A stretch of DNA of 39,777 nucleotides from an uncultured Planctomycetaceae bacterium (GCA_964633565.1 CAZWGW010000001.1:1-39777); one strand, 5' to 3'; numbered from the stretch's first letter, positions 11,340-36,839 are shown. A program made the numbers and translations. The notes: generated from the letters alone by a model not told the origin.

Positions 11340-11342
11340 ACG

Positions 11343-11363: not shown

Positions 11364-11375
11364 GTTGCATATTGC

Positions 11376-11404
11376 TTGACTTCTGACGCCAGATTGAGCA
11401 GAAT
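11376..11404 (+). promoter_or_regulatory. sigma70-like promoter candidate for the aminosugar operon
   Basis: The motif is TTGACT (11376-11381), N17, CAGAAT (11399-11404), in a locally AT-richer patch. It would give a leader of about 420 nt before ATG 11832. Planctomycete promoter rules are poorly known. Confidence 0.25.
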
Positions 11405-19331: not shown

Positions 19332-21314
19332 ATGCTCTGGGAGATTGAAATTCGACCGGTCGAGGGAGAGGTCGATCGTGAAGCGGCACGGATTCTTGCC
19401 GAGACCCGCGCCTTGGGCGCCGGATCGGTCACCCGGGTTCAGGCAGCGCGGTCGTTCCTGATCGAAGGTGAACTCGATGAGGCTGCGGTGAACCGTTTCG
19501 CGGCGCCGCTCCTGGCAGACCGCATTGTCGAGACGGCCGTGACGAGACGTCTCCCCACACGCGGTGGCGACGACGGCGACTCGACGCTGCTCAACGTCTT
19601 GCTGAAGCCGGGTGTGACCGACAACGTCGGGCAGACGGCGGCCGCAGCGCTGCGGGACCTGGGCCTGAGCGTGGCACGCGTGGCGACGTGTCGCAAGTAT
19701 CTGGTCAATCGCGACGCTGCCGACGCCGACATCGCACGGTTGAGCACAGGCGTGCTCTCGAACGACGCCATCGAGCAGGTCCTGCGCGGGCCGCTGCAGC
19801 TCACGAGCCTGTCGTTGGGGGGGAAGTACGGCTTTCAGCTTGTGAGGGCGCCGATCCGCGGAATGTCCGCTGCCGAACTGGAACGACTCAGCCGGGATGG
19901 GCAGTTGTATTTGAGCCTCGTGGAAATACAGACGATCCAGGGTCATTTCCGGGACCTCGGCCGCGAACCGACGGATATCGAGCTGGAAACGATTGCCCAG
20001 ACGTGGAGCGAGCACTGTTCCCACAAGACGCTGGCCGGGCGCATTCGTTACCGCGACGAGCATGGCGAACGGCAATTCACGAACATGCTCAAGGAAACGA
20101 TCTTCGCCGCCACCCGGGAAATTCGCCGCCGGTTGGGGCCGGACGACTGGTGTGTCAGTGTTTTTCGGGACAATGCCGGCATTGTCAGGTTCGACGACAA
20201 GCACGACGTGTGCATCAAGGTCGAAACGCACAATCACCCCTCCGCATTGGAGCCCTATGGCGGGGCGAACACCGGCCTGGGGGGCGTGATCCGCGATCCG
20301 CTGGGGACGGGGCTTGGCGCGAAACCGGTCTGCAATACCGACGTGTTCTGCTTTGCTCCGCCGGACACGCCATTCGATACATTGCCGCCGGGAGTCTTGC
20401 ATCCGCGGGCCGTCATGCACGGCGTCGTCTCCGGAGTGCGCGATTACGGCAACCGCATGGGTATTCCGACTGTCAACGGGGCCGTCTACTTCGACGAGCG
20501 CTACCTCGGCAACCCGCTGGTGTACTGCGGCAACGTGGCACTGATCCCGGTAGGGAAGAGCGAAAAACGAGTGATCCCCGGCGACTACATCGTGGCCGCA
20601 GGGGGGCGAACGGGGCGCGACGGCATCCATGGCGCGACGTTTTCGTCGGCCGAATTGACGCACGAGAGTGAGTCGGTTTCCGGCGGCGCGGTGCAGATCG
20701 GTAACGCCGTCACCGAAAAGATGCTCATGGACGTGATTCTCGCCGCGCGGGACCGTGGCCTGTATCACGCCATCACCGATTGCGGCGCCGGCGGATTATC
20801 GAGTGCCGTGGGCGAAATGGGAGCGGACACCGGCGCCGAAGTCTGGCTGGAGAAGCCACCGCTCAAGTATGCCGGGCTGTCTTATACCGAGATCTGGATC
20901 AGCGAGGCACAGGAACGGATGGTGCTGGCCGTGCCGCCGGAGTCGTGGCAAGAATTCCATGCGCTCTGCGCGTCCGAAGGGGTCGAAGCAACGATCATCG
21001 GCAAATACACCGATACCCGGCGGCTCGTGCTCAAATACGAAGGGCACGAAGTCGGCAATGTGGACATGCAGTTCCTGCATGACGGCCGGCCGCCGGTAGT
21101 GAGGGAGGCCGTGTTTGAATTGCCGGTGCGCGCCGATACATGTTTCAGCCACGATCGGCGCGATGAGGAGCTGAGGAGAGCGGGAGATGCGGGGAGTTCT
21201 CAGATCTCTTCATCCCCGGATCCCCTCATCTCCTTATCACGTCATGCAGACGAGCCGCGTTACAATGCTCCCTTGAAGGCCATTCTTGGCTCGCTCAACG
21301 TCTGCTCGAAATAG
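19332..21314 (+). CDS. purL: purL 5' segment: two PurS-like repeats fused to the FGAM synthase II N-terminal half, ending at an in-frame TAG
   Basis: Motifs are [60 protein letters not shown] and [16 protein letters not shown]. The ORF ends at TAG 21312-21314 inside the conserved ..SK[12 protein letters not shown] block. Confidence 0.9.
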
Positions 21315-21341
21315 TGGATTATCCGCCAGTACGATCACGAA

Positions 21342-22358
21342 GTGCAGTCGGGCAGCGTGGTCAAGCCGCTGGTGGGCGCCGCCAACGACGGCCCGTCAGA
21401 TGCAGCCGTGGTGCGCCCGGACCTCCGCTCGCGCCGCGGTCTGGTCATCGCCTGCGGAATGAATCCCCGTTACGGGGACATCGATCCGTACTGGATGGCC
21501 GCCTCGGCGATTGACGAGGCCGTGAGGAATTGCGTGGCGGTCGGCGCGGACCCCAAACGCATCGCCATCCTCGACAACTTCTGCTGGGGGAACACCGACC
21601 GGCCGGAGACGCTCGGTTCGCTGGTGCGGGCGGCCCTCGGCTGCCATGACACGGCCCTCGCCTTCGGGACGCCATTCGTCAGCGGGAAGGACTCGCTGAA
21701 CAACGAATTCACGTTCGTCGACCAGTCCGGCAGCAAGCGGACCATTGCCATTCCGCCGTCACTGCTGATTACCGCACTCGGGCAGATCGACGACATCGAG
21801 CAGGCCGTCACGATGGACCTGAAGGAGGCGGAAAACGTCCTGTATCTCGTGGGAGACACGAAAGAGGAACTCGGAGGCAGCCACTATGCGATGATTCATG
21901 GAATCGGAGACGGACGGATTCCACACGTCGATCCGGTTCGAGCACCGGAGTTGTTTGCGGCAATCCATTCGGCCATTCGGTTCGGCTGCGTAAAATCGTG
22001 CCATGATCTGAGCGAAGGTGGACTTGCCGTGGCACTGGCCGAGGTGTGCTTCGCTGGCGGACTCGGTGCCCAAATTGACCTTGCGGCGCTCGCGGCGCGA
22101 AGCGGAATCAATGATCCATCCGTACTCCTCTTCTCGGAAAGCAATACGAGATTCCTGATCGAGGTGGCGGCAGAGGATGCGGCGTCGTTCGAGGTGATGA
22201 TGACTCCGCCCGAAGGTGACTCACGCGCCGTCCGCCTGGGAATCGTCAACCAATCGGGAAAACTCCTCATTCGGCGCAAGGCAGATGCCGAGCGCGTCGT
22301 CGATACAACCATCGAAGAATTGAAGGCGAGCTGGCAGCAGCCGCTCGCACGAGGCTGA
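21342..22358 (+). CDS. purL: purL 3' segment (second AIRS/AIRS_C half); the homology actually resumes at 21315, directly after the TAG
   Basis: It is in the same frame as 19332..21314. Nucleotides 21315 onward read [21 protein letters not shown]..., then [32 protein letters not shown] and [17 protein letters not shown] 21342 is only the first start-like codon reported by the ORF track. Confidence 0.85.
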
Positions 22359-22370
22359 GGCGCCTGTCAC

Positions 22371-23141
22371 ATGGAGTATCTGACGACGGCACAGGCAGCG
22401 GCCCGTCTGGGCGGCCGCATCCTGCAGGACTGGCGAACAAAGTTCACCGCCCGCGAGAAGAGTCCCAGCAATCTGGTCACCGAGGCGGACGTTGCGTCCC
22501 AGCGCGCGATCTTCGAGTATATCCACGAACGATTTCCGGACCATTGCTTTCTCGGCGAAGAGGATTTGCCGCATGTTTCCGCACCGGACGAGTCTCCTTG
22601 TCGGTGGATTGTCGATCCGCTTGACGGCACGTCGAATTATGTGCATGGCTTCCCGTACTATGCCGTCTCGGTGGCGCTGGAAGAGAGGGGCGAACTCATC
22701 GCGGGCGCCATCTACGACCCAAACCGCGACGAATTGTTTTCTGCCGCGGCCGGGCAGGGGGCGACGCTGAACGGGCGTCGCATCCACGTCTCCCAGGCAT
22801 CCGACTTGTCACAGGCACTCTGTATGGCAAGCCTGCCCGTGAAGACGACGCGCGCGGACCCTGCCGTGCAGCGCTTTCTGCGCGTGTTGGAAGCGGCGCA
22901 ACATGTCCAGCGGACCGGTTCGGCAGCCCTCAACCTCTGCTCGGTCGCGTGCGGACGCGTCGACGCGTTCTGGTCCACCAGCCTGCATCCGTGGGACATG
23001 GCCGCCGGTGTGCTGATCGTGACCGAAGGAGGCGGCCGCGTCACGCGGACCGACGGTGGGTTGTTTGATCTGCTACGTCCCGACCTGTTGGCCACGAACG
23101 GGACGCCGCTGCACTCGGCAGTGGTTCCACTCCTCGCGTAA
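22371..23141 (+). CDS. suhB: inositol monophosphatase family protein (SuhB/ImpA-like)
   Basis: Motifs are FLGEE, WIVDPLDGTSNYVHGFPYYAVSVAL and WDMAAGVLIVTEGGG. Confidence 0.9.
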   Translation: MEYLTTAQAAARLGGRILQDWRTKFTAREKSPSNLVTEADVASQRAIFEYIHERFPDHCFLGEEDLPHVSAPDESPCRWIVDPLDGTSNYVHGFPYYAVSVALEERGELIAGAIYDPNRDELFSAAAGQGATLNGRRIHVSQASDLSQALCMASLPVKTTRADPAVQRFLRVLEAAQHVQRTGSAALNLCSVACGRVDAFWSTSLHPWDMAAGVLIVTEGGGRVTRTDGGLFDLLRPDLLATNGTPLHSAVVPLLA

Positions 23142-23422
23142 CCTCCGGCCGGGCAGCTCGTTACGCGCATCGCGGCAAGTCGGCAAATCGACGTGCCGGA
23201 CGTGTTTGGTTCTTTCTCCCCGCCTCCCGCGCAGATATGATTGCCTGAGCGCGTGGATGTGGATCCCCTCTCATCTGCCGTTCGGCACGTGGAATCCGGT
23301 CCGGGACGCGCAGCGTCGCGCCGCCCTGTTGCGCGCCGGCCACATGGGTCGGCGAGCGCAGGCAGCCGAACCTGAACTCGTAATTCGAACTGAACTCTGA
23401 GCCACAGGCAGAACGCGTGGTG

Positions 23423-26400
23423 ATGTCCTCGGTGATCCTGCCGCTGTTGTACGGCCTGCTGGCCATCGGGCAGACCAGCCCGCCGGTGGCGACACCGACT
23501 CCGCCGGCCGGCACCGTACCACCGAAGCTTGCTGAGGGACCGACTCACCCGATCAAGCCGTCGTCGGACAGGGCGGGCGATGTGTTCTTCGACCCGGATG
23601 AAAACGGTCGGCTTCGCGCGATTCCCGTCGACGACGCAATCCAGGCAGGTGCTGAGTTTCTCAGACACCTGCAGGGGGACGGGCGACCGGCAACCGCGGC
23701 GGTCTACGTCTCCCGGCTCTTGCTCGATGGCGAGATCGTCGGCGACCGGGCCGAGTTCAAAGTGTCGATCACGATCGAAGTCACCCGCGCGGAAGGATGG
23801 TACGACGTACCGCTCGCGCTTCACGAGGCCCACGTCCACGAGTCAAAGTACGAGGGACCCGGCAACCAGGCGCCCCGGACCGGGGGACCCGCGGAGGACG
23901 GACTGCACTGGTCCTTGAACGGACAGGGAACGCACCGGCTCGAATTGAAGTTCGACGTTCCGCTCAAGCAGAGTCCTGCCGGGCAACAGTTGCAGTTGCG
24001 GTTGCCTCAGTTGCCCGATCTGTTCCGCCCCCGGTGTGTACTGCGTATTCCGGGAGGACCTGTCGTCGTCACGGCAAAGTCGGGAACGCCGGTGCCCGTT
24101 CACGTCCTGGAATCAGGCGACCAGGAGGTGGACCTGAATGTCATGGGCCAGCGCCTCGACCTCTCCTGGCGCCCGCACACCGACGAGTCACTGTCGCTCT
24201 CGACGTTCATCACCTCTTTCGACCTCCATCGGAGTGGAGGTCAACTGGAACTTGTGGCAGCACAGCAATGCGATGTCGAGCAGGGAACCGTCACGCGGAT
24301 TGAGGTCCGAATGCCCTCCGACACGCAGTTCGGCCTCGGTTCAATCGGGCGGAAGAAGGGCATTAACCAGCCCCCGGCCCTGTTGCGGCATTTCGAGATG
24401 GAGGAACGACCGGGATGGGTTCAGGTCGAATTGGATGAGCCGATGTCGGGACGATTCGAACTCGAGTGGAAATTCGCCAGGCCGTTTCCACAGTCGGGAG
24501 ACGTCATTCTGATTGACGGACTGGAACTGGCCGCTGCCAGAATTCAGCAGGGACGAGTCGAACTGCAACCCTTCGATGGTTATGACGTCAACTGTCTCGA
24601 AGAGGTCGGGAGTGGACTGCAGGAGACGAATCCTGTCAGTCAGACGGCTCTCAAGGCGTTTGAGTTTCGCAGACAGCCATTTCGTTTGGACGTCGAGGTT
24701 TCCCGCATCCAGCCGAAACTCATTGCCACGCCGCGATATTATCTGCGGCTCGACACGGATCAGGCGGATTTGTACCTGGAGGCGCAGGTCTCGGTGCTGG
24801 CCGGAGTCGTGGATGAGTTGCTGATCGAATGGCCCACTCGTGGAAACGATGGCTGGAGCTGCAACAGTGCGGTCGTGGACGTGCAGGTCGAGTCGGGCCT
24901 GGACCGGACGACGCTCAAGGCCACGGTGGTCGCCGGGGGAACTGCACTGCCGCCCGGCACGATCCGCCTTCAGTTTTCCCAGCCGGTTGTGGGGCGTTCG
25001 ACCGAAACGGTGCGTTTGCGGCTGATCGTGCCGTTCGTCCGCGTGATCCAGCCGGACGAATCCGGATTCGACCTGACGGTCCCCCGGCTCGGTGGGGCGG
25101 CCACGCAACCCGGCGCCGTGTTTATTGCGGGCGGCATGAAATTGGAGCCGTTCCTGGCCGAAACATCCGACCCGCCCGACAAGCTGCCGCCTCCGGCCAC
25201 GGCCGTCGTTGGGATCCCGGCCGGGTTCGCCGAGCCAACGGTGCTCGGGTTTTCCCTGGCGGCATCACCGGCGCCGCTTCCCATCGGCTGGGTCGAACAC
25301 TCGCGCACGATTTCGACCGAATCGAATGTGTCGGTTGTGGAGCTGCGCCGCGGGGCAGTCAATGTCGTGCAGCGTGTGTCGTACGCCGTTTCGTACGGCG
25401 AGGTGAGTTCCCTGTTGCTGGAATTGCCCCCCGCGATTGACGAACTGCTTCCTCCGGGGATCGAACGGCTCGGACCGGGCGAGGAGAGTATTGTGCTGTT
25501 CCGCCTGGACGACGGGACTGTGCTTGCTGCGGAACGGGCCGGGGCCAATTTGCGCATCCCGCTGCCGGCGCCGCGACATGGCCAGTTTGACCTGTTCATC
25601 GATTATGTGTGGCCGGTGCCGGCCGCCAGCGTGCAGCAGTCGGCGCCATTCGAACTGCCAATTGTGCGCACGCTGGATGCCGAGTTCGGCAGAATCGTGA
25701 TCAGCACGAGAGATTCCGAACGGATCCGCCTCGACGATTCCGAACAGGGCTGGACGTCGTTGGCGCCGCGTTCCGGAGGCGTTGCGTGGCAGACCCTGCA
25801 ACAACGGTCCGAAGTCCGACTGACGCTCGACGAGTCGTTGCTCAACGTCCCGCAGCAGTACACGATTCACTCCGCGTTTCTGCTGACACGATTTGGCCAG
25901 CAAGGCGAGGCGATTACGCTGGCGGAGTATGTCGTTCAGGATGCGCCGTCACGGCTGCTGATCATGCTGCCGCATGCCGATAGTCCCGTCGAATTCCGCT
26001 GGGATGGAGCGGTGCTTGAACTCGATCGCCAGGCCGTCCGGATCGAAGGACTGCTGGACAAGTACACGCTCGATTTGCCGACCGCCGAGGGAGAACAGTC
26101 GTCCGGACGGCTCTCGGTCAAGTACCAGTCTCCGTCGCACGGACCGCTGGGACTGATCGCGCGGCGCTCGATCGAGTTTCCCAGGTTCCCCGGCAAGGTC
26201 TGGGTCAACGAAACCTGGTTTGAAGTCGTGCTGCCCACCGGCAGCCAGTTGTTTGAACCACCACCCAATATGGCGCCCCAGTACACGTGGCAACGTCGGG
26301 TGGCCGTCTGGATGCGTCAGTCCACTCCGGAATACCAGCAGCGGCGTATCGACCTGTTTCCCGCGTCGGAGTACCCGCAGTTTCAGTCGGCACGCGGGAA

Positions 26401-26839
26401 CAGCTACGCCTACCACGCGCTGGGCCCTGTGGCGCGCGCCACGTGTGGCGCGTTGTCGCAATCGCTGATCGTGTTGATCGGCGCCGGTTTGACGCTGTTC
26501 CTCGGGTTCCTGTTCGGGCGAGTGCCCGCCACGCGAAACGTGTTCTCGCTGATCTTTCTCGGGTTTCTGTTCGCGCTGGCCGGCGTGTGGCACCTCGAGT
26601 TGATGGAACTCCTGCTGCAGCCGGCGTTGCTGGGACTGCTGCTGGCGGCCATCGCAACGATGTTCGACACGGCAACGCGCCGCCGGTTGGCGCTGGCTCC
26701 TTCAGAGTCGGCAGTGGCCGGGCCGCCGCGCGTCGACCATGAACTCCGATCCACTGGCGCCAGTTCCGCTTCTTCCCCTCCCGCGCGAACCGCGGTCTAC
26801 CGCTCCGTGGGCACGTCCGATTCGGGAGGGACGTTGTGA
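23423..26839 (+). CDS. giant envelope protein A (about 1140 aa): signal peptide, a non-cytoplasmic region of about 1000 aa, and a C-terminal 3-helix membrane anchor; no family recognised
   Basis: Start is ATG 23423 (or GTG 23417). The signal is SSVILPLLYGLLAIGQ, followed by a Pro-rich linker. The long beta-rich-looking sequence has no catalytic motif I can recognise. The TM cluster at about 26450-26670 comprises LIVLIGAGLTLFLGFLFG, VFSLIFLGFLFALAGVW and ALLGLLLAAIATMF. The stop TGA 26837-26839 overlaps the start of the next gene. Confidence 0.7.
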   Translation: MSSVILPLLYGLLAIGQTSPPVATPTPPAGTVPPKLAEGPTHPIKPSSDRAGDVFFDPDENGRLRAIPVDDAIQAGAEFLRHLQGDGRPATAAVYVSRLLLDGEIVGDRAEFKVSITIEVTRAEGWYDVPLALHEAHVHESKYEGPGNQAPRTGGPAEDGLHWSLNGQGTHRLELKFDVPLKQSPAGQQLQLRLPQLPDLFRPRCVLRIPGGPVVVTAKSGTPVPVHVLESGDQEVDLNVMGQRLDLSWRPHTDESLSLSTFITSFDLHRSGGQLELVAAQQCDVEQGTVTRIEVRMPSDTQFGLGSIGRKKGINQPPALLRHFEMEERPGWVQVELDEPMSGRFELEWKFARPFPQSGDVILIDGLELAAARIQQGRVELQPFDGYDVNCLEEVGSGLQETNPVSQTALKAFEFRRQPFRLDVEVSRIQPKLIATPRYYLRLDTDQADLYLEAQVSVLAGVVDELLIEWPTRGNDGWSCNSAVVDVQVESGLDRTTLKATVVAGGTALPPGTIRLQFSQPVVGRSTETVRLRLIVPFVRVIQPDESGFDLTVPRLGGAATQPGAVFIAGGMKLEPFLAETSDPPDKLPPPATAVVGIPAGFAEPTVLGFSLAASPAPLPIGWVEHSRTISTESNVSVVELRRGAVNVVQRVSYAVSYGEVSSLLLELPPAIDELLPPGIERLGPGEESIVLFRLDDGTVLAAERAGANLRIPLPAPRHGQFDLFIDYVWPVPAASVQQSAPFELPIVRTLDAEFGRIVISTRDSERIRLDDSEQGWTSLAPRSGGVAWQTLQQRSEVRLTLDESLLNVPQQYTIHSAFLLTRFGQQGEAITLAEYVVQDAPSRLLIMLPHADSPVEFRWDGAVLELDRQAVRIEGLLDKYTLDLPTAEGEQSSGRLSVKYQSPSHGPLGLIARRSIEFPRFPGKVWVNETWFEVVLPTGSQLFEPPPNMAPQYTWQRRVAVWMRQSTPEYQQRRIDLFPASEYPQFQSARGNSYAYHALGPVARATCGALSQSLIVLIGAGLTLFLGFLFGRVPATRNVFSLIFLGFLFALAGVWHLELMELLLQPALLGLLLAAIATMFDTATRRRLALAPSESAVAGPPRVDHELRSTGASSASSPPARTAVYRSVGTSDSGGTL

Positions 26840-29800
26840 TGTCGCGCCCCGCGGCAGCTCCCACTGCCGGCTCCGGAGACGGCAGGCGCCGTTGCCGGCC
26901 CGTGCGCCTTGCGCTGCTCTCCCTGTTCCTGATGACAGGTGTGTCGCTGGACGCGGTTGCGCAACAGGACATCTCGCAGCCGCGCAAGGCGTATGTCCCG
27001 TCGAACGCGCCCCAGGCGTGGCCGACGGGACAATGGAACCCCGTGCCGACGCCGATCCTCACGGAATTCCTGCGGGACCAGGCTGCCGATCCAGCCCGCG
27101 TGCGGCCAACGGCCTACGTCGAACACGCGCTCTATCGCGCGGAATTGACGAGCGACTTCGCGCTCGAAGGGTCGTGGAACGCAACGGTGCGCCGTCCGGA
27201 CGGAACGCGACCGCTGATCGAACTGGGTGCAATGTCTGTGGTCCTCACCGACGTCACATCGGCAGGAGTCCCTGCGGTGTATGGCACGGATCCGTATGGC
27301 CGGACATTGTTGTATGTCGACCACTCAGCCGGCACCCTGACGGGTCGCTGGTCGCTCGCAGGCCGTTCGATCCTTGATCGCGTGGAGTTTCCAGTCCGAA
27401 TCCCGGCGGCTGCCGCGTCGCGGTGCGAGATCACGGTTCCCGCGGGTTGGCGACTGAAAAGTTCCCACGGGCTCGTCCGGGAACCACAGCCCGCCGAACG
27501 GAACGGATGGATGCACTGGACCGTCGAACTCGGCCAACACAGCGAGTGTGTCTGGACGCTGCGGAAGTCGGATTCGCCGCCGGCGCCCGATCTGCTGTGC
27601 GATCGATCCATTGTCTACACAATTCGCCCGGATGGGAACCGCATCCAGTCCGAGTTCTCCATCCAGTCGCTCGATGACTCGGCCAGCGAGATCGTGTTCC
27701 TGGCGCCTGCGGAATTGAGAAATCCGACGGTGACTTACTCAGCGGCAACCAGTCTGCCCGCCCGCATTTTTCAGACCGGAGATCTCCAGCGGCTCGTCGT
27801 GTCGCTCCCGAATACTGAGCCGGGCAGACTCGGCTCGTTTCGCATCGCGGGAGAGTTCCCCCCGTCGCGGGACGATGATGCGCCGCTGCCGGTCGTGTCC
27901 CTCGAGGGAGGGATCATTCTGCGTGGTACTCGACGTGTCGATGTGGACCGGCCGCTTACACTCAAATCACTGAACATCGATGGACTTCGGCAGTCCACAG
28001 TCAATTTCGATGAGTCGGGGACCGACTGGTCTTTTGAGGAACTCCGCCCCGACGGACGCATTTTCGTTCACGTCGGCCAGCCGCAGACGTCGATCACGGC
28101 GCTCGTCGCGACACACATCACATCGACGATCGACGGTCCACGGTTCCGCGCCGTTGTCAGCCTGCAGGCACGAACGGGCAGCACGTTTCGCACGACCTTG
28201 GAACTGCCGTCCGCGTGTGACATCGTCGATGTGTACCCTTCGGCGAACATCGATAAATCCGGAATCAGCCACTGGGGCGTATCCCGCTCCGGCGACAAGG
28301 CGACCTTGTCGATCGAATTTCGACAGGCGCTGCAGAGTCAGTTGCCAAAACAGGTTGAGATTACCGGGCGGTGGATGGATCGGCCGGCCTCTCCCCTGCG
28401 CATTTCCGCGTTTCCTGTTCCGCTCGATGCCGACGACTGGCAGGTTCTGCTGGCAGTAAGCGGCATTTCGGCTGCTCGCGACGCCTCTCCACGTCCGATC
28501 GAAGGCACGCAGCTGCCTTCCAACTGGGCGCCGCATCTGCAGTTGCTCAGGCTGGCGGCCGCCGATCCCGGTCTGACATGGTATATCGCTGATGGCGCCT
28601 CGCCGTCAGGCGAAATCGTCATTAATGCCACGCTGGCGGACGACGCAGCCTCTCCGGTAGGCACGGGCGCGGTGAGCACGCCAGGCCGCCAACCCTCCAG
28701 ATTGGTCCCGGAATCGCCAGGCCGGCCGGCGCTCTCACTCACCCTTCACTCCCTGCTCTCCACGTCAGGGTCTGACGCGCTGTCGCATGATGCCCGCTAC
28801 ACGTGGTCCGGCAACGTGGAATCGGCCAACTGGAATTTCCAGTTGCCGGATCCCGCCACGCTGGACTCCGTCTTCGTTGACGGTCGTGCACATGCCACTG
28901 AGGTCCTCGACCACACTGTCAGCCTGGCTCCGCTGCCCCCGGACGCTCATCAGATTCTGGTCCGTTTCCGTACGCCGGCCGCGACCGGCTCGGCGTGGAT
29001 GCAGAACCGGTATCATGTTCCGCTCCCGCGCTGGAATGTCCCGGTCGTCAGCTTGCGATGGAGCATCGGTCTGCCTCTGGGGCACTCGATCGCCGGCTCT
29101 CCGCTGGACCCGGCGCTCGGACCGTGTGCGTCAGAACCTTCATGGCCGCAGCGACTCTTCGCCCCGTGGGTTCTATCAGGGGACAGGTCATGGTTCAACC
29201 CGTTTTCCAAATCCGCCTGGCGCGATGTGCTCGTTGGACCAGATCCGGCACCGGCTCAGACGGCCGACGCCACCCCCAGCGTCACATTCCTCTCCCTGGA
29301 TCCGCCATACGAACTGTCACTGAACACCTGGGACCTGCGAACGGCCAACCGCCTGGCGCAACTGTCGTTAGTCGTCTGCCTGGCGTGTGCCGTCGCCGTC
29401 CGGCGGGTGGCAGGGCGGCAGGCACTCGCACTGCTTGCAATCACTGCCGCCGCAACTCTGTTCACTGCGCTCAGTGTGCCTCACGAGTATGGGCCGCTCG
29501 CGGGAGGCGGTCTGCTCGGACTCATTGCCGGCGGGTTGCTCCCGTCACGCTGGGTTCAGCAACGTGATCTGCTGGCGGGCTGGCAACTCCGTCCCCGTAC
29601 CGCGCCGGGCATGGGGGCGACGGGGCTGGCTGCACTCCTGGCAGGTCACTGTCTGTGGCTTACAGTGGTCCAGGCGCAGGAACCGCGTCCCGATCCGGAC
29701 CGGCCAGCCCAGCCCCGGGAACTCTCCGCAGAAACGCCCGGGACCGATGAATTCGACGTTCTGCTTCCCTATGAAAACGCGACGATCGCGCCTGTCGGCT

Positions 29801-32800
29801 ATCTGGAGGCCCGTCGGTTGGCAGGCTTCACTGACTGGCTGCGGCGCGAGTATGAACTCCCCGAGTACCTGCTCCGCTCGGTTCAATACCAGGTCTCCGA
29901 TTCGGACCCTGCGCTGATCCGCGCAATATTGGATGTCGTCGTCCTGTCGGACGCACGTCGCGTCACAGTCGTCCTCCCGTTTCACGAGATCACGTTCCGC
30001 TCGCCTGACGATTGCGAAGTTGACGGCCGTCGCACACAGGTCCGACCAATGGCGGACGACAACGGATTTGCCGTTGAAGTCGAACCCCCATCGCCGCCGG
30101 AAGGCGTTGCGACAACGCCACATGCGGCCCCCGTTCCGCGCCCGGTCGAAGTTGCCGTCTGGTTCCAGATGATTGGCAGCGACGGCAGCGGGGGATACCG
30201 CTGCCGTGTACCACCGGTCAATGATGCGCGGCTCTACCTGCCTGCAGCCGTGCTTCGTCGCGGACTGCATCTGTCATCGGCACAAGGCGCCCGTTACCAG
30301 GACGAGCACGGAAACCTCGAATATGACCTGGGGGGCGCCCACTGGATCGGGGTTGATCGGGTATCGGACGAGGTCGTCGCGCAAGTGCCGCTGAATCCAC
30401 TGCGTGCGGAGGCGGCCACGCTCGTGGAAGTCCATCCGATGCGACTGCAGGCGCGGACACAGATCGACCTGTCGCCCCCTGGTGAGGAATTCGGCCTCCC
30501 GCTCCCCCGCCGCTTGAATCTGCTGCTGCCAGGGCGCTCCGAGGTCCGGCAAGTCTGGTCGGATTCGCTCCGGGAATACAGGGTCTGGTATTCCGGCACT
30601 GCCGTGACGGTCCTGGAAATCGATTTCAATCAACGACTCGCGGGACGCCAGAAAATCGAGATCGAGTACGCCATTCCCTTTGATCCGCGGGCGGCCAGCG
30701 AAGTCCCTGCGATCGAACTGCTCGACGGGGAACGGCTGCTGAGCCATCGCATCGGTCTGCGCGCGGCTCCGGGCATGCAGCTCGAACTCGACCGTTCTGC
30801 CCTGGTCCCTGGAGGCCCGGAGGAACTGCTGCCCGACCGGTTCCGTGAGGGGTTGCCCCCGGACACCGAATGGCCCCCTCCCGATGCAGCCTTTTCCGCC
30901 CTCGCGCCAGGTCCCATTCCCATTCGGCTTAACACCCTCGAGCCGGCGCGCAGCGTCGCCGTCGAGCAGACCGTGACCATCGAATCACGGGCGCTTCGCC
31001 TCGAGGCCCAGGCGCAGCTCGATGTCTCCGGAACCCAGGTCTTCGAACACAAGCTGCTCGTGCCGGTCGACTTCAGAATCGACGCGCTCTCCGTCGATCA
31101 GGATGGCGCCAATCGCCTGCTGGACTGGTCACGCGACGGCGACCGGCTCGTCGTGCACCTGCGCGAGGGACGTTCGGGTCGACAGTTGCTGAAGATCCGT
31201 GGCTGGTTGCCGTTGCAGGTCGGGGAAACGACGCGATTCCCCGCACTCGAATTCCAGGAAACGACGACGCGATCGTCGGACCTGATCCTGCGGGATATTT
31301 CCGGGCAGCGCGTCGAGTTGTTCGCCGAGGGGGGAGTGCCGCTGTTACCAGGTCTGCCCGCCCGCACGGCGGCCGCCGATGCCACAATCAGGCGTTATGC
31401 CGGCCCCGGCCCGAACGTGCCCGTGAGTTGCCGCGTCGTGCCTATTCCTGTCATGCCGCATCTGCAGACAATGTCCTTTCTGGAGCGACGGGACCAGGCC
31501 TGGACGCTGACGACGGTGTGCCACGTTGGGGAGCAGCCCGGGTCGGCGACGACCTTGACTTTGCAGGTTCCGCGTCAACTTGGGCAGCAGTTCCACGTCA
31601 CGCCGAGGGAGATAGTTCGCTCATCACGAGTCAGTGAGGATGGTTCCCTCGAACTGAATCTGCACTGGTCGGACGCCGCCCCTGCAATCCATGCGTTTCA
31701 GATGACGGCGCCGCTCGCCCCTCCCGGCGAATCGCATTGGAGTCTGCCGCTCCCTCGATTCCCGCCGGCATCCGGCAGTTCGCGGTTGCTGGTGTTGCCA
31801 CCGGACATCCGGTATACGCCGGACGCGTCGACCGCCGTCCCGATCGAGTCCGCAGAGTGGCTCACCATTCAGCCGATGTGGTCTGCTGCGGCGCCTGCGA
31901 TCGCCGACGGCCAGCCGTTTCGCATCATCGCCGACGACGTGTTGCTCAAGCGGTCTGCGGAGTCATCCGGCGATACCACAACGCCTGACTTGCTGGAAAC
32001 GATCGTATGGGACAACGCCGACGGTTCAGCACTCGGCCTCACGGTCGTGTACCTCTCCGCCGTCAGGCGTCCCTTCGAACTCAGGCTCGAACTGCCCCGC
32101 ACCGTGCAAATCGCGGGCGCGCTGGACGGCGGTCGGATTGTCGAAACGCGATCAGAACATGACTCTTCCGTGGTGTGTGTGATTCAATCGCATTCCACCG
32201 AAGGCCTGCGGCGCGTGGCGTTTTTGTGGCGCCGCAGTGCGGAAATTCCTGGCCGCCGCTGGACCGCGTCGCCGCTGCTGCCCACCCTGCCAGGCCTCGC
32301 GCTCGACCGACAGTTCGTCACCATCGTGCCTCCCCGCGACCGTCAGTACCTTCTGCGGGGCCCGGCCAGCCTCCAGAGCCCTGAGATATACCGCATGCGG
32401 CGTGCCGAGCAGTTGCTGGAACTGATCGGCGGCCATGGCGACCCCGGGCATGGCCCCACCGCCGGAGATCTCCTCGACCTGGCGCGCGAATTTGACTCGG
32501 AAATCTCCCTTCTCTCCCGCGCAACATGGAGCGACAAACGCCTCGTCGATCGTTTCGCGGCGCTGCACGGACGATGGCAGTCGATTCGTGACGCGGCCTG
32601 GCTGGCCCCCACGGAAGACGCCGCGCAGGGCTCGGCAGACCGGGCACTCCTCGACTGTCAACGCGAGCTGATTTCCGGAGCAATCAGCCAACCGGACGCC
32701 GTGCTGTTGCAGCCTGTACCGGATGATAGCCGTTTGAGATTCTGGTCGGTCAGTGATCGAGCCGCACGGATCATCTGCGGGTTGCTCGTGGTTCTGGCGC

Positions 32801-33021
32801 TGTCCATCGTGTTGATTGCCTGGCACAGTATCCGCCGCCGCGGGCCTGCCTCCCGCAGCGGTCCGCGCATGGATTATTTCGGACTGCTGGTGTTCGGACT
32901 GCTCTGGTGGTCTTTGCTGCGGTTTGGAGCGCTGGGGCTCGTGCTGGTGGTCGTCGCCGTGGGTCTGCAGGCGGCAGCGTGGTTGCGGCCAGGCCCCACA
33001 CCGGCGGCTCCGGCCACGTAG
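26836..33021 (+). CDS. giant envelope protein B (2061 aa): two tandem modules, each a large non-cytoplasmic region followed by a TM cluster; no family recognised
   Basis: GTG 26836 / ATG 26839 overlaps the stop of protein A. The N-terminal signal is RLALLSLFLMTGVSLDAVAQQ. The central cluster of 4 hydrophobic segments lies at about 29350-29680 and ends in a signal-like LLAGHCLWLTVVQAQEP. The C-terminal cluster lies at about 32760-32985. Stop is TAG 33019-33021. Confidence 0.7.
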   Translation: MMSRPAAAPTAGSGDGRRRCRPVRLALLSLFLMTGVSLDAVAQQDISQPRKAYVPSNAPQAWPTGQWNPVPTPILTEFLRDQAADPARVRPTAYVEHALYRAELTSDFALEGSWNATVRRPDGTRPLIELGAMSVVLTDVTSAGVPAVYGTDPYGRTLLYVDHSAGTLTGRWSLAGRSILDRVEFPVRIPAAAASRCEITVPAGWRLKSSHGLVREPQPAERNGWMHWTVELGQHSECVWTLRKSDSPPAPDLLCDRSIVYTIRPDGNRIQSEFSIQSLDDSASEIVFLAPAELRNPTVTYSAATSLPARIFQTGDLQRLVVSLPNTEPGRLGSFRIAGEFPPSRDDDAPLPVVSLEGGIILRGTRRVDVDRPLTLKSLNIDGLRQSTVNFDESGTDWSFEELRPDGRIFVHVGQPQTSITALVATHITSTIDGPRFRAVVSLQARTGSTFRTTLELPSACDIVDVYPSANIDKSGISHWGVSRSGDKATLSIEFRQALQSQLPKQVEITGRWMDRPASPLRISAFPVPLDADDWQVLLAVSGISAARDASPRPIEGTQLPSNWAPHLQLLRLAAADPGLTWYIADGASPSGEIVINATLADDAASPVGTGAVSTPGRQPSRLVPESPGRPALSLTLHSLLSTSGSDALSHDARYTWSGNVESANWNFQLPDPATLDSVFVDGRAHATEVLDHTVSLAPLPPDAHQILVRFRTPAATGSAWMQNRYHVPLPRWNVPVVSLRWSIGLPLGHSIAGSPLDPALGPCASEPSWPQRLFAPWVLSGDRSWFNPFSKSAWRDVLVGPDPAPAQTADATPSVTFLSLDPPYELSLNTWDLRTANRLAQLSLVVCLACAVAVRRVAGRQALALLAITAAATLFTALSVPHEYGPLAGGGLLGLIAGGLLPSRWVQQRDLLAGWQLRPRTAPGMGATGLAALLAGHCLWLTVVQAQEPRPDPDRPAQPRELSAETPGTDEFDVLLPYENATIAPVGYLEARRLAGFTDWLRREYELPEYLLRSVQYQVSDSDPALIRAILDVVVLSDARRVTVVLPFHEITFRSPDDCEVDGRRTQVRPMADDNGFAVEVEPPSPPEGVATTPHAAPVPRPVEVAVWFQMIGSDGSGGYRCRVPPVNDARLYLPAAVLRRGLHLSSAQGARYQDEHGNLEYDLGGAHWIGVDRVSDEVVAQVPLNPLRAEAATLVEVHPMRLQARTQIDLSPPGEEFGLPLPRRLNLLLPGRSEVRQVWSDSLREYRVWYSGTAVTVLEIDFNQRLAGRQKIEIEYAIPFDPRAASEVPAIELLDGERLLSHRIGLRAAPGMQLELDRSALVPGGPEELLPDRFREGLPPDTEWPPPDAAFSALAPGPIPIRLNTLEPARSVAVEQTVTIESRALRLEAQAQLDVSGTQVFEHKLLVPVDFRIDALSVDQDGANRLLDWSRDGDRLVVHLREGRSGRQLLKIRGWLPLQVGETTRFPALEFQETTTRSSDLILRDISGQRVELFAEGGVPLLPGLPARTAAADATIRRYAGPGPNVPVSCRVVPIPVMPHLQTMSFLERRDQAWTLTTVCHVGEQPGSATTLTLQVPRQLGQQFHVTPREIVRSSRVSEDGSLELNLHWSDAAPAIHAFQMTAPLAPPGESHWSLPLPRFPPASGSSRLLVLPPDIRYTPDASTAVPIESAEWLTIQPMWSAAAPAIADGQPFRIIADDVLLKRSAESSGDTTTPDLLETIVWDNADGSALGLTVVYLSAVRRPFELRLELPRTVQIAGALDGGRIVETRSEHDSSVVCVIQSHSTEGLRRVAFLWRRSAEIPGRRWTASPLLPTLPGLALDRQFVTIVPPRDRQYLLRGPASLQSPEIYRMRRAEQLLELIGGHGDPGHGPTAGDLLDLAREFDSEISLLSRATWSDKRLVDRFAALHGRWQSIRDAAWLAPTEDAAQGSADRALLDCQRELISGAISQPDAVLLQPVPDDSRLRFWSVSDRAARIICGLLVVLALSIVLIAWHSIRRRGPASRSGPRMDYFGLLVFGLLWWSLLRFGALGLVLVVVAVGLQAAAWLRPGPTPAAPAT

Positions 33022-33288: not shown

Positions 33289-33783
33289 TTGGACTACCAG
33301 TTCAAACCGATTGGCAAGACCTGTGCCGCCACCGGCAAGCCGCTGCTGCCGGGGGAGCGCATCTACTCCGTCGTCGTCGAACAGAATGACGAACTCGTGC
33401 GACTCGATTTTTCGCCGCAAGGCTGGTCCGGACCGCCGGACGGGACCATCGGCCAGTGGCGGTGCGTCGTCCCGGCGCCCGAATCCAAACCCGCGACGGC
33501 CCTCGACCCGGATGCACTGCTGAGTTATTTCGAACACCTTGTCGAGGACGCCAACCCCGCTCACGACAAGCTTCGCTACGTGCTGGCGTTGTTCCTGCTG
33601 CAGAAGCGGCGACTGCGGCTCGACGGCTCGCGCATCGACGGAGTCGTGGAATACCTTCAGCTTTCCGGCTCGCGGGGCGAGGGTCCGTACGAAATCCCCG
33701 ATCAGCAACTCGCCGAATCGGAAATCCGGCAGTTGCAGGCGGAACTGAATCACTCCCTGGCGGGCGGCATGAAGGCCGCCTGA
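33289..33783 (+). CDS. hypothetical cytoplasmic protein (164 aa)
   Basis: The start is TTG, with no signal peptide or TM. It reads DYQFKPIGKTCAATGKPLLPGERIYSVV..., and the C-terminal half is helical (KLRYVLALFLLQKRRLRL...EIRQLQAELN). No family was recognised. The coding call is based on length and non-shadow-like composition. Confidence 0.5.
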   Translation: MDYQFKPIGKTCAATGKPLLPGERIYSVVVEQNDELVRLDFSPQGWSGPPDGTIGQWRCVVPAPESKPATALDPDALLSYFEHLVEDANPAHDKLRYVLALFLLQKRRLRLDGSRIDGVVEYLQLSGSRGEGPYEIPDQQLAESEIRQLQAELNHSLAGGMKAA

Positions 33784-33817
33784 CCGGGACGCCCCCGGAC
33801 ATTGATCCTGTGCACGA

Positions 33818-34885
33818 ATGGAATCTCGCATTCACACGGCAGTCGTTTACACGGTTGCGGCGATGCTCCTGCTGGCATCCAGCGGCTGCCACATCTGGGG
33901 GCTCTGGCGGCCGCGACCGGCGCCATGCGTCCTGTCTCCGACCGCCACCAAGCAGGAGATCGTCGCGCACGTCAACCGCAACGTCACTCCGCCGGGCGGC
34001 GTGCCGCTGACGGCGTGGCGCTGCCTGCAGTTGCAACTCACCCTCAATGGCATGCCGCCCGTACCCGCGACAATCGACGTCGAAGCACCGCGGCGGATGC
34101 GGATTATCGCTCACATGCCGCTCACAGCCAGCGAAATCGCCGATTTCGGGTCGAACGACGAAGGGATCTGGATGTGGGATTATCGCATGCCCGGGGTCGT
34201 GACCGTTGCGCATGAAGACCTCCCTCAAGCCCTCGCGCAGATGCAGATCCCGTTCGAGCCAGAATGGCTGATGGAAGTGCTGGGAGTCGTTCCGATCAAC
34301 GTCGACGAATTCGAGCTGGCCGTGCCGGAGACGCCGAAGAGCTATATCGAGCTCATTGCCAACCGCGATTCGCCCACCGGCGAGGCCGTGCGGCGCGTCG
34401 TGCGCATCAACCTGTGCCAGGGACGCATCCTGGAACACCGGCTTGAGAGCATGGACGGCCGCACGATTGCGTCCGCTCGCCTTGATAACTACGAACCGGA
34501 CGCCACCGGACAGTTCGTGCTGCCGCACCTTATGAGGATTGAATGGCCGGAGGCGAAAGCCGGCATGACGCTGCGGATCGGAGACATCATGGTCAACCCG
34601 CCCGCCAACAACCTGGTTTCGTGGCAGGTGCCGGACAAACCGGGGGTGCCGCGCATCGTGTTCCCTGGACGCAGGACCGTCCCGCGACCACAATCGTGGC
34701 ACGAGCCGCTGCTGCGCCAGGCGGGGGGAGAGGCGGATCCTGACGCGCCGGCCCGCATCAGATTGCGGGACGACCCTGAAGACGAGCCGCCTGCAGCGTA
34801 TTCTGAAGCAGCATCGCAATCGTCATCGGTCCCACTCCGCCGGGGACCGGCGTCAGCGCCGCGGCCTTTTCCCGCACTGCCGTGA
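33818..34885 (+). CDS. hypothetical lipoprotein (a LolA/LolB-like beta-fold is possible, by eye only)
   Basis: The signal and lipobox are AAMLLLASSGC. The body of about 250 aa has alternating beta-like segments. A Pro/Arg/Ala-rich tail runs antisense into the 3' end of folD. Confidence 0.6.
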   Translation: MESRIHTAVVYTVAAMLLLASSGCHIWGLWRPRPAPCVLSPTATKQEIVAHVNRNVTPPGGVPLTAWRCLQLQLTLNGMPPVPATIDVEAPRRMRIIAHMPLTASEIADFGSNDEGIWMWDYRMPGVVTVAHEDLPQALAQMQIPFEPEWLMEVLGVVPINVDEFELAVPETPKSYIELIANRDSPTGEAVRRVVRINLCQGRILEHRLESMDGRTIASARLDNYEPDATGQFVLPHLMRIEWPEAKAGMTLRIGDIMVNPPANNLVSWQVPDKPGVPRIVFPGRRTVPRPQSWHEPLLRQAGGEADPDAPARIRLRDDPEDEPPAAYSEAASQSSSVPLRRGPASAPRPFPALP

Positions 34886-35660
34886 AGTCGACGTCGCCCA
34901 CGAGGCGCCCGTCCGGCAGGCGATTCGTGCCGACGTCAATCACCACCGCGCCCGGCTTGACCATGTCGGCGGTGACGAAGCCGGGCCGGCCGATCGCTGC
35001 GATCAGGATGTCCGCCTCGCGCGTGACCGCCGCGATATTTCGCGTGCGGCTGTGACAGACGGTGACCGTGGCATTGGCGCCCGCCCCCTTCTGCATTAGC
35101 AGGAGCGCCAGCGGCTTGCCGACGATCTCGCTGCGGCCGAGGACGACCGCATGTGCGCCGTCGATCGTCGCCCCGCTTTCCAGGATCAGCCGCTGGCAGC
35201 CGGCCGGCGTGCAGGGCGCAAAGCGCGGCCGCCCCTGCACCATCAGGCCGACATTCTCGGGATGGAAACAGTCGACGTCCTTGAGCGGACGGACGGCGTC
35301 CAGGACCGACGTCGCGTCGATCTGTGGCGGCAGCGGGAGTTGTACGAGGATGCCGTGGACGTCGGCCTCGGTATTCAACCGCTGCACCAGATTGAGGAGT
35401 TCGGTCTGTGATGCTGCGGCCGGCAGCCGGTGCAGCGTGCTGCGGAGGCCTGCCTCCTCGCAGGCGCGCTGCTTGTTCCGCACGTAGATCGCGCTGGCCG
35501 GGTCGTCGCCGACCAGCACGGCCGCCAGGTGCGGCGTGACCCCGGTCGACTCACGGAAGGCCCGCGCCTCGTCGGAGATCTGCTGACGGATGCGCGCGGC
35601 GAGCGCTTTGCCGTCGATCAAGCGGGCCGTCAATGCGGGATTCCTCAGTGGTTGCGGCAA
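34758..35660 (-). CDS. folD: bifunctional 5,10-methylene-tetrahydrofolate dehydrogenase / methenyl-THF cyclohydrolase
   Basis: Motifs are LIDGKALAARIRQQI, PHLAVVLVGDDPASAIYVRNK, VHGILVQLPLP, VVLGRSEIVGKPLALLL and PVPGGVGPMTIAMLLQNT. The start is TTG 35660. An internal TTG at 35633 (MTARLIDGK) would give the more usual N-terminal length. Confidence 0.92.
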   Translation of the reverse strand: MPQPLRNPALTARLIDGKALAARIRQQISDEARAFRESTGVTPHLAAVLVGDDPASAIYVRNKQRACEEAGLRSTLHRLPAAASQTELLNLVQRLNTEADVHGILVQLPLPPQIDATSVLDAVRPLKDVDCFHPENVGLMVQGRPRFAPCTPAGCQRLILESGATIDGAHAVVLGRSEIVGKPLALLLMQKGAGANATVTVCHSRTRNIAAVTREADILIAAIGRPGFVTADMVKPGAVVIDVGTNRLPDGRLVGDVDFTAVREKAAALTPVPGGVGPMTIAMLLQNTLQAARLQGRPAI

Positions 35661-35696
35661 GACGCCCGATTTCTGCGCGAAATTCGGCTACGGGGT

Positions 35697-36788
35697 TCAC
35701 TCGGCGGCCGGTTCGGCCGACGGCGGCGGTGGCGGAAGTTGCTGCGCCGCGTAGTCGTGCGGCGGTGGATATCGGCCGCTCTGCAGCCGGGCGACCAGAT
35801 CCAGCACCACGTCGGCGGGAATGGCGTAGGATTCCGTGCGGCCGGCGCGGGCGATGTTGACGCCGACCGCCATCCCGTCCAGATTGACCACGCAGCCGCC
35901 GCAGTGCTCGGGCCCCAGCACGGTATCGTGCTGCAGCACCGCCGGGAAACCGGTCCGCCGCGGGCTGAGGCGTCCCCCCATCTGGTTCTGCACGGCAATC
36001 CGCGACAGGAACTCGCCAAATGGATGGGAGAGCGTCGCTGCGACGACCATTTCGGCCCCACCCCGCTCGATCGTCAACTGCACGGTCACGCCCGGCTCAT
36101 GCTGGCGGATGGTTTCAATCAGGGAGACGCGGTTGTCAACGTCGCGGTCCCCCACGCGCTTGATGACGTCGCCCGTGCGGAGGTCGGCCTTTGCGGCGGC
36201 GCTGTCGGCAATAATCTCGGCCACCATCGCCGGCCCTTCCGTCATTTCCAGCCGGACGCCGAGCACGCCGCTGATGTGCTGGAAGGGAATCGGCCGCCGC
36301 GCCGCGCTGACGATGCCAACCGCCACCGGGTCGGCTTCGAGGCCGGGTGTGGCCAGCCACTGCCCGACGTCGGCGTCGCGCCCGGTCAGCCAGCGGACGG
36401 CCGTCAGGTCTCGCGCACCGACCTTGAGCAGGGCCAGGTCCTGGTCGGGCTCCAGGGCACAATACTCGGCCTCGAGCGTGCGGCCGTCGCAGAACCGGCA
36501 GGTCAGGTCCCCCTGCAGTTGGCTGGCTTTGGTCAGGATCCAGCCGTCGGGAGCGACGACCGTTCCGAGTGCGACCGCTTTGTCATCGGTGAGTACCTGA
36601 ACAGTCCATTGGCGCGGTCCGGCGACGACATCTTCGAACGCGTGCCGGACGTCGACGCCCGTCGTCAATTGGCTTTCCGCCAGCGCCTCCGGCTGTGCGA
36701 AGGCCTGCGCCTGGCACCACAGCAGCGCGACGATCGCAGCCAGCGACGGGATGAACAGGCACAGTCGACGAGACGTGGCTCCCCGCAT
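35697..36788 (-). CDS. HtrA-related trypsin-fold protein with the PDZ domain inserted inside the protease fold and a non-canonical triad (Ser89 / Asp117 / Cys296)
   Basis: The signal peptide ends in AFAQ. GTVVAPDGWILTKASQL aligns to G.I..dGyIvTNaHVv with Ser in place of His (codon 36522-36524). DQDLALLKV retains the Asp. The PDZ block (GVLGVRLEMTEGPAMVAEIIADSAAAKADLRTGDVIKRVGDRDV...) lies before LQHDTVLGPEHCGGCVVNLDGMAVGVNIA. That last block aligns to iqtDaainpGNSGGPLvN..G.viGIN with Cys in place of Ser (codon 35901-35903). Confidence 0.75.
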   Translation of the reverse strand: MRGATSRRLCLFIPSLAAIVALLWCQAQAFAQPEALAESQLTTGVDVRHAFEDVVAGPRQWTVQVLTDDKAVALGTVVAPDGWILTKASQLQGDLTCRFCDGRTLEAEYCALEPDQDLALLKVGARDLTAVRWLTGRDADVGQWLATPGLEADPVAVGIVSAARRPIPFQHISGVLGVRLEMTEGPAMVAEIIADSAAAKADLRTGDVIKRVGDRDVDNRVSLIETIRQHEPGVTVQLTIERGGAEMVVAATLSHPFGEFLSRIAVQNQMGGRLSPRRTGFPAVLQHDTVLGPEHCGGCVVNLDGMAVGVNIARAGRTESYAIPADVVLDLVARLQSGRYPPPHDYAAQQLPPPPPSAEPAAE

Positions 36789-36839
36789 ATCGCAATCCCT
36801 CCTCTTACAGGCCGGCGCGCGAGCGCAGTTTTTGCGAAC

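Follow-up and report, generated by a model that had tools for sequence, protein, structure and literature searches.

The oligosaccharyltransferase (OST) subunit Ost1 (ribophorin I, RPN1) is composed of two similar beta-rich luminal domains and one transmembrane helix; it is non-catalytic and is thought to hold the glycosylated peptide (PMC7226087). Reports of OST1 have so far been confined to eukaryotes and to TACK and Asgard archaea (PMC11417166). Its chains are the leading structural matches of a bacterial protein that is the subject of this study. In a contig of 39,777 nucleotides from an uncultured Planctomycetaceae bacterium (GCA_964633565.1 CAZWGW010000001.1:1-39777; this whole stretch of DNA is referred to below as the window), two overlapping genes, named here A and B, encode giant membrane proteins built of three homologous modules, i.e. 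A itself and the two halves of B (B1 and B2). The reading to which we give a probability of about one half is that A and B are coupled subunits of one non-enzymatic, cytoplasmic-membrane-anchored and periplasm-facing scaffold or binding platform, pseudo-trimeric in build, with A, B1 and B2 as its three legs.

The comparison of A with Ost1/RPN1 (chains 6ezn_A, 6s7o_E, 6c26_1, 7oci_A and 8agb_E) reveals a common plan. Both have a signal peptide and two tandem non-cytoplasmic beta-sandwiches followed by a transmembrane helix, both Ost1 and the A and B proteins are considered non-enzymatic, and Ost1/RPN1 is the best structural match of the membrane-proximal unit of A over its whole length (Foldseek probability of 1.00). 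The two systems differ in that Ost1 has 2 domains and 1 helix, whereas the A and B modules have 4-5 domains and three anchor helices each. Moreover, A and B comprise three paralogous modules distributed over two genes of a bacterial host and lack the cytosolic four-helix ribosome-binding domain. No STT3/PglB gene was found in the window or in the neighbourhoods examined.

The A-B gene pair and its modules

Gene A (23417-26839, plus strand, as are all features of A and B given below) encodes 1140 amino acids (aa) when read from GTG 23417 and contains one complete module; in the NCBI model (P0001) it starts at ATG 23423 and encodes 1138 aa. Gene B (26836-33021) encodes 2061 aa, i.e. the two fused modules B1 and B2. 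At the junction (26824-26841; GGGAGGGACGTTGTGATG) a Shine-Dalgarno-like GGGAGG lies 9 nt upstream of ATG 26839, and the TGA of A (26837-26839) overlaps both possible starts of B, GTG 26836 and ATG 26839 (the latter used by the NCBI model, P0007). Judged from the sequence, the GGGAGG motif and the overlapping stop and start codons form a classic translational-coupling arrangement. Together, both genes occupy about 1/4 of the contig. The two open reading frames (ORFs) and their overlapping junction had been reported in a preliminary description of the window, and the coordinates and lengths given there are exact. A scan for promoters and terminators yielded no more sites than were found in shuffled controls.

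No significant match was obtained when A was compared with B, or B1 with B2, by BLASTP (best E-value of 0.086). As BLASTP is blind to the modules, profiles were compared with hhalign, for which A-type (n = 6) and B-type (n = 7) sequences were taken from a word-indexed homologue search. With default settings, A aligned with the second half of B from the signal-peptide cleavage site on (E-value of 5e-20, 829 columns). When the B alignment was cut at residue 935 into B1 and B2, the E-values were 2e-14 for A against B1 (805 columns), 7e-15 for A against B2 (958 columns) and 4e-8 for B1 against B2. The real pairs scored 79-136, far above the 15-29 (E-values of 0.05-0.9) of 21 reversed or column-shuffled controls (including 20-column block shuffles), and the module signal therefore does not come from composition or from transmembrane segments. 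In addition, an unfiltered HMMER search with a 66-sequence A profile matched both halves of B colinearly (6e-9 for the B of the window and 3e-30 for its homologue P0012), as well as both halves of a two-module paralogue, P0167 (2e-45 and 2e-38).

On the evidence of these profiles, A, B1 and B2 are paralogous modules and B was made by duplication and fusion. The three modules had been proposed by eye from shared N-terminal patterns and pre-anchor blocks; hhalign pairs these very residues, and the hhalign, control and HMMER results all agree with the proposal. The modules are alike in layout, as suggested, but they are not of equal size, B1 being short of one domain and B2 carrying an extra juxtamembrane insert of ~100 aa.

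Topology and domain architecture of the modules

The hydrophobic helices of A are a signal peptide and three segments at aa 1009-1084 (nt ~26441-26668). Those of B are likewise a signal peptide, followed by four segments in the centre of the protein (aa 838-947, nt 29347-29676) and three at its C-terminus (aa 1973-2053); hydropathy analysis places them at the nucleotide coordinates noted previously. The predicted cytoplasmic loops of both proteins contain 1-5 Arg each and few acidic residues, and the predicted short periplasmic loops contain none, except for one Arg in the SLLRFGA turn between the last two helices of B. According to this positive-inside pattern, none of the three large regions lies in the cytoplasm. 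The pattern is in agreement with the helices of AlphaFold2 (AF2) models and supports the same-side, non-cytoplasmic position that had been suggested for the A, B1 and B2 ectodomains.

The fourth central helix of B had been thought to resemble a second signal peptide, and the profiles agree: in hhalign it is aligned with the signal peptide and cleavage site of A, and in 7/7 B homologues it ends in a signal-peptidase-I motif of the AxA↓Q(E/D/N) type (the arrow marks the cleavage site), in which the Ala at position -1 is invariant (VQA↓QE, ARA↓QD, ARA↓QE, AAA↓EE, GAA↓QE, SRA↓QE and AVA↓QN). This relic signal peptide confirms that B is a fusion of two complete precursor genes. The putative site in the B of the window is VVQA↓QEP (codons 947/948, nt 29676/29677), and B may be cut there by signal peptidase I after membrane insertion, which would separate two legs and give B2 an N-terminus at Gln948.

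The AF2 model of A, built on a 66-sequence alignment, has a mean predicted local distance difference test score (pLDDT) of 84.5 and a predicted template modelling score (pTM) of 0.54, the latter leaving the relative placement of the domains uncertain. In this model residues 1-52 are proline-rich and disordered, residues 54-85 form a small cap and residues 94-1012 are all-beta without interruption; three long helices (1013-1090) and a disordered tail complete the chain. When the A family profile was aligned with itself, residues 100-751 matched residues 265-925 (a shift by one repeat, E-value of 3e-18), and shifts by two and three repeats were detected at 2e-8 and 7e-4, respectively. In the model, long beta-hairpins that open the repeats start at residues 94, 258, 432, 629 and 814. 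The self-alignment and the hairpin starts therefore define five beta-sandwich domains of ~165-200 aa each in A; B1 has four and B2 five, i.e. 14 in all. The preliminary description had seen no repeat and no recognisable domains. The former holds for the raw sequence only, since profiles and structure resolve every module into tandem repeats spaced ~170 aa apart. The latter holds insofar as no sequence library recognizes any domain, but the predicted structure provides 4-5 tandem beta-sandwiches per module and a unit resembling Ost1/ribophorin I.

The signal peptide of A (23423-23470; MSSVILPLLYGLLAIG↓Q), assigned by hydropathy and the family consensus ...AQ..., is followed by a proline-rich linker that extends to about residue 52 and is modelled with a pLDDT below 50. 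Repeat R1 (23696-24190; residues 92-256 of P0001, delimited by the self-hhalign period and the DSSP hairpin from residue 94) is the most conserved ectodomain. It contains the motifs WVxVPLRL and GxGxHxLxL, and its nearly invariant residues are G103, P130, L131, G145, W163, G167, H171, L173, L192 and P195. Repeats R2 (24191-24712, residues 257-430) and R3 (24713-25303, residues 431-627), both delimited by AF2 and self-hhalign, precede R4 (25304-25858, residues 628-812), which has no counterpart in B1; residues ~633-813 of A are essentially unmatched in the alignment with B1. R5 (25859-26323, residues 813-967) holds the pre-anchor block VWVNETWFEVVLPTGSQLF of the earlier account, and its conserved residues are P920, P938, P947, W956 and R965. 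The ectodomain is joined to the membrane by a juxtamembrane helix (969-978) and a beta-hairpin (993-1012) with an invariant Y995 (26324-26458). The three-helix anchor (26459-26692, residues 1013-1090), recognized by hydropathy, AF2 and conservation, contains a glycine zipper (GAGLxLxxGF), a conserved loop arginine (R1038) and the motif LLLQPAxLGL. The cytoplasmic tail (26693-26836) is disordered in the model and ends in a motif, T..V.RP....(E/D).VS.S.SG, kept across distant A-type proteins, which could be a docking or phosphorylation site.

The signal peptide of B (26836-26961) has a basic n-region (RRRCRPVR), a hydrophobic core and the cleavage motif AVA↓QQ. The B1 ectodomain (26962-29343) comprises four beta-sandwich repeats, R4 being the missing one, and a low-complexity linker at aa ~590-630, and it is colinear with A in hhalign (A 60-581 with B 62-553, and A 814-1077 with B 630-900). 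In the central cluster (29344-29676) helices 1-3 are the B1 anchor, and helix 4, at aa 924-947, represents the signal peptide of B2 in internalised form. The B2 ectodomain (29677-32751), with five repeats colinear with A, includes the insert mentioned above (32386-32685, aa ~1851-1950), which lies between the pre-anchor block and the anchor. The latter (32752-32994, aa 1973-2053) again has three helices, with a conserved G..WW....G.

Among 150 diverse family members, conservation peaks in the first domain, which is distal to the membrane, and in the anchor. Gly, Pro, Trp and Leu account for nearly all conserved columns, with one His in addition, and there is no candidate catalytic set among those of the ectodomain. 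This residue spectrum and the absence of any library match were counted in favour of a non-enzymatic character.

Structural counterparts, relatives and gene neighbourhood

Structures were compared with the PDB using Foldseek. For full-length A, the Ost1/ribophorin I chains of yeast and human OST lead (E-values of 1e-9 to 2e-6), followed by integrin-alpha legs, M1 aminopeptidase N-terminal domains and inter-alpha-inhibitor heavy chain 1. A membrane-proximal fragment of A (R4, R5, hairpin and anchor; 500 aa) was modelled with a pLDDT of 89.9 and a pTM of 0.72. Its best 8 matches are all Ost1/RPN1 (9e-16 to 1e-12) over ~485-500 columns, i.e. the whole query and the whole target, and the next fold follows at 2e-5. 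In the sequence searches, Ribophorin_I (PF04597) had no match to A or B at E-values ≤0.1 and none at ≤1 among 44 family members, and three A/B-family profiles found no OST chain in the PDB at ≤10. The model thus suggests that the membrane-proximal unit of A is built like Ost1, with homology unproven; the model and structure search envisaged for A recognized a known fold without a family match at the sequence level.

Single repeats of A and B resemble the N-terminal domain of M1 aminopeptidases (ERAP2, IRAP and aminopeptidase N; ~210-235 columns, probability of 1.00, E-values of 2e-5 to 5e-4) and, over ~250 columns, inter-alpha-inhibitor heavy chain 1 (6fpy/6fpz; ~1e-4). In the aminopeptidases this beta domain is accessory to a catalytic one, whereas in A and B it is tandemly repeated and membrane-anchored and no catalytic domain is present. 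The legs of integrin alpha (thigh, calf-1 and calf-2) are, like A, long beta-sandwich arrays leading to a membrane anchor (1e-7 to 1e-4, ~800-900 columns), but their template modelling scores (TM-scores) against A are ~0.1 and A and B have neither a beta-propeller head nor an FG-GAP repeat, so that the likeness is generic.

An exhaustive HMMER search with the A profile (in which A itself scores E = 0) retrieved 4311 representative clusters (50% identity) at ≤1e-3 and 1701 at ≤1e-30; the best 150 are all full-length matches of ~1050-1200 aa, save a few shorter and apparently truncated sequences. This corrected the word-indexed search, whose 6-15 relatives had wrongly hinted at a rare family. 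Neither A nor B has a match in Pfam, NCBIfam or PADLOC, sequence profile searches of the PDB with the A/B-family profiles returned chance matches only (e.g. a dynein roadblock chain at 0.2), the source names of the homologues are only "hypothetical protein", and no published description of the family was found in a literature search. The Pfam result agrees with the novelty claimed earlier: A and B belong to a large uncharacterised family in which a known fold occurs in a new arrangement. Weak matches to DUF5693 (an uncharacterised membrane family without known function, for which no paper was found) occur in 8/44 family members at residues ~975-1065, i.e. the juxtamembrane hairpin and helices 1-2, and correspond to profile positions ~298-377 of 609. 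With a best E-value of 0.024 and ~11 bits against a gathering score of 29, they may reflect remote homology or an effect of transmembrane composition. These matches and those of TgpA_N in the anchor were rejected as too weak to be significant.

The contig is planctomycetal (a PSCyt2/PSD1 gene is located at 139-2388), and the related loci come from metagenome-assembled genomes (MAGs) of Planctomycetaceae or Planctomycetota; a search started from a single peptide pattern found 4 loci, also in planctomycete MAGs. Immediately upstream of A is an inositol-monophosphatase-family gene (22371-23141, plus strand; PF00459, Pfam E-value of 4e-69) that stays below the cut-offs of the NCBIfam models HisN, SuhB and CysQ. 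Such a gene lies directly 5' of A at L001-L003, L004, L005, L006, L009 (where only its position and size identify it), L012 and L014, and the full order of this gene, A and B is found in the window and at L001-L003, L004, L005, L009, L012 and L014. A and B are adjacent in 8/9 examined contexts with an A-type gene, among relatives down to ~20-25% identity to the proteins of the window, and their 4-bp overlap is kept at L001, L002, L004, L005, L012 and L014. At L007, A and B are present and the inositol-monophosphatase-family gene is missing. PurL is located upstream of the block in the window and at L005, L006 and L009. This recurring pairing in distant relatives, the outcome of the neighbourhood comparison called for in the preliminary description, supports the view that the products of A and B work together. 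The inositol-monophosphatase-family gene may be functionally linked to A, or its position may reflect stable core-genome synteny only. No other neighbour of the pair is conserved; in particular, genes for glycosyltransferases, secretion or ATPases do not recur in the contexts examined.

The window PurL (19332-22358, with PurS fused at the N-terminus) is interrupted by an in-frame TAG (21312-21314) that divides it into two ORFs (660 and 338 aa) of identical frame. The PurL of L005 and L006 is a single protein of 968-976 aa with Glu at this position, which fits one G-to-T change; the TAG fits a sequencing error, a pseudogene or read-through. Downstream of B are two ORFs, 33302-34819 (minus strand, 505 aa) and 35430-38120 (plus strand, 896 aa), which have no Pfam, NCBIfam or PADLOC match and are not conserved beside A-B at other loci. 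An anti-phage defence role was rejected, as neither A, B nor these two ORFs match PADLOC. About 12 kb upstream (9765-13055) are genes for a PMT_2 (GT-C) glycosyltransferase and a DegT/DnrJ aminotransferase, which make envelope sugars and are not linked to A-B at other loci.

Two relatives depart from the usual arrangement. The two-module paralogue P0167 (2127 aa; L013, 3934-10317), which is closer to A than to the B family, is encoded in an operon with genes for an extracytoplasmic function (ECF) sigma factor, an anti-sigma (zf-HC2)/vWA/YfbK_C protein and, following P0167, a Glycos_transf_4 protein. At L015 (8001-12687), two overlapping genes form a "mini" version of the pair. Both of their products (766 and 797 aa) contain about three family repeats as well as C-terminal helices, and the one encoded first has a LysM insert (aa 427-473) of the peptidoglycan-binding kind, which fits a periplasmic, wall-proximal setting. 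An upstream gene at this locus encodes a 1660-aa protein ending in a hydrophobic stretch followed by RRRR, an end which, as we presume, resembles a sorting signal of the MYXO-CTERM type. From this resemblance and the amino-acid composition, the L015 contig may be non-planctomycetal. The supposed restriction of the system to planctomycetes thus holds for every full-size context examined, but a distant, reduced two-gene version occurs on a contig that looks non-planctomycetal.

Possible functions of the A-B pair

Each leg of the proposed assembly consists of a signal peptide (internalised in the case of B2), a short cap, 4-5 tandem beta-sandwiches, a juxtamembrane hairpin and a three-helix, glycine-rich anchor. 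Signal peptidase I may cut B behind the fourth central helix, and the three legs, alike in build, would then be separate chains. The legs would pair 1:1 through their anchors, and perhaps also through their distal domains, to form a pseudo-trimeric base of 9-10 helices bearing 14 periplasmic beta-sandwich domains. Like Ost1 in OST, the assembly would hold a polypeptide, glycan or wall polymer at the membrane without catalysis, and it may serve as a housekeeping scaffold or binding platform in envelope biogenesis.

Several observations weigh against this explanation. The evidence for an interaction of A with B consists of gene adjacency and coupling, and locus L006 has A (10001-13360) and the inositol-monophosphatase-family gene with no adjacent B; A is followed there by convergent Trypsin_2/PDZ genes, which at L004 lie beyond B, and this could reflect loss, relocation or misassembly. 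The topology was derived only from hydropathy, the positive-inside rule and AF2 helices, and the n-region of the A signal peptide is atypical in having no basic residue. The strong conservation of the polar anchor residues R1038 and Q1066 could mean more than passive anchoring. Foldseek comparison was limited to the PDB. The TM-scores with Ost1 are only 0.26-0.33 at a root-mean-square deviation of ~16.6 Å, probably due to differing inter-domain angles, and Ost1 may rank first simply because no other solved protein combines two tandem domains of this fold with a transmembrane helix. Given these low TM-scores and the absence of a sequence signal, the family was not filed as a member of Ost1.

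A descent shared with Ost1 would nevertheless explain why it is the best structural match over the full fragment, 7 orders of magnitude ahead of the next fold, and why its architecture of signal peptide, two similar beta domains and transmembrane helix is reproduced. A and B would then be true, very distant Ost1/ribophorin I homologues acting as accessory, substrate-holding subunits of a machine using lipid-linked sugars (a GT-C glycosyltransferase, PglB/STT3- or PMT/ArnT-like, or a polysaccharide polymerase), in keeping with the position of P0167 directly upstream of a gene of the WecA/MraY/ALG7 family (Glycos_transf_4) and with the PMT_2 and DegT genes of the window. We regard this as quite unlikely: neither Ribophorin_I nor PDB sequences give a signal, the TM-scores are ~0.3, the known range of OST1 does not include bacteria (PMC11417166), no glycosyltransferase is conserved beside A-B in the contexts examined, where the inositol-monophosphatase-family gene is the only such companion, and the Glycos_transf_4 link is a single instance in a paralogue. 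Bolder, and a shade less probable still, is the idea of a bacterial branch of the Ost1/ribophorin-I lineage whose three legs would hold the substrate of a planctomycetal machine for periplasmic glycosylation or envelope polymers, with B as a polyprotein from which signal peptidase I would release two of the legs by a cut at the internal AxA↓Q. A passive function is unlikely, yet is to be taken more seriously than either. Without specific ligand holding, A and B would be a periplasmic spacer or ruler, or a tether between membrane and peptidoglycan, for the unusually wide and convoluted planctomycetal periplasm; the 14 domains form long arrays of rigid beta-sandwiches, the genes are conserved in a core-genome-like manner beside housekeeping genes (PurL and the inositol-monophosphatase-family gene), one relative has a LysM insert and the structure search also brought up integrin-alpha legs. 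Neither of the full-size proteins, however, contains a peptidoglycan-binding or outer-membrane-binding domain recognized by Pfam, specific interactions are suggested by how strongly the distal R1 and polar residues of the anchor are conserved, and the pTM of 0.54 leaves uncertain how the domains of A are arranged.

The conservation of the anchor, the most conserved segment, can also be read in another way, namely that the 9-10 transmembrane helices are a transporter, channel or signalling unit for which the ectodomains serve as sensor or gate. The near-invariant R1038, the Q-P motif of helix 3 (LLLQPAxLGL) and the glycine zippers would suit such a function, as would the conserved motif in the cytoplasmic C-terminal tail of A and the operon of P0167, which includes genes for an ECF sigma factor and a vWA-containing anti-sigma protein. 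With just three helices per module, polar motifs of the A anchor not kept in those of B1 and B2, no transporter, kinase or other signalling domain found by Pfam or NCBIfam, and only non-significant anchor matches to DUF5693 and TgpA_N, we consider it very unlikely. Scarcely credible is a role as alpha-2-macroglobulin-like protease traps, BatD-like aerotolerance proteins or surface adhesins. A and B are multi-domain beta-sandwich arrays, the weaker Foldseek matches include complement C3/C5 and integrin legs, and HtrA-like Trypsin_2/PDZ protease genes are located downstream at three loci; but the complement matches have probabilities of 0.13-0.35 only, the protease genes are convergent and absent from most loci, and a three-helix inner-membrane anchor argues against a surface location. 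The individual identities were rejected as well: A and B contain no CxEQ and no A2M or MG match in Pfam (alpha-2-macroglobulin, thioester proteins), no match to the BatD profile (PF13584), with PurL and the inositol-monophosphatase-family gene and not MoxR or vWA genes as neighbours, and no LPXTG or RGD motif or adhesin Pfam match.

A and B, which would form a periplasm-facing, three-legged scaffold or binding platform, represent a very large family outside the domain libraries, from a phylum in which envelope architecture and cell division are still little understood. The analysis maps the domains of this family and predicts where B is processed; it also makes a heteromeric assembly of three legs likely and identifies a conserved distal domain and conserved anchor residues. 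The likeness to Ost1 is an unexpected parallel in structure to the N-glycosylation machinery of eukaryotes and archaea. Should the homology with Ost1 be true, it would bear on the origin of the accessory subunits of oligosaccharyltransferase; if merely the fold is shared, the family would still be well suited to a Pfam entry and to genetic analysis in a tractable planctomycete.

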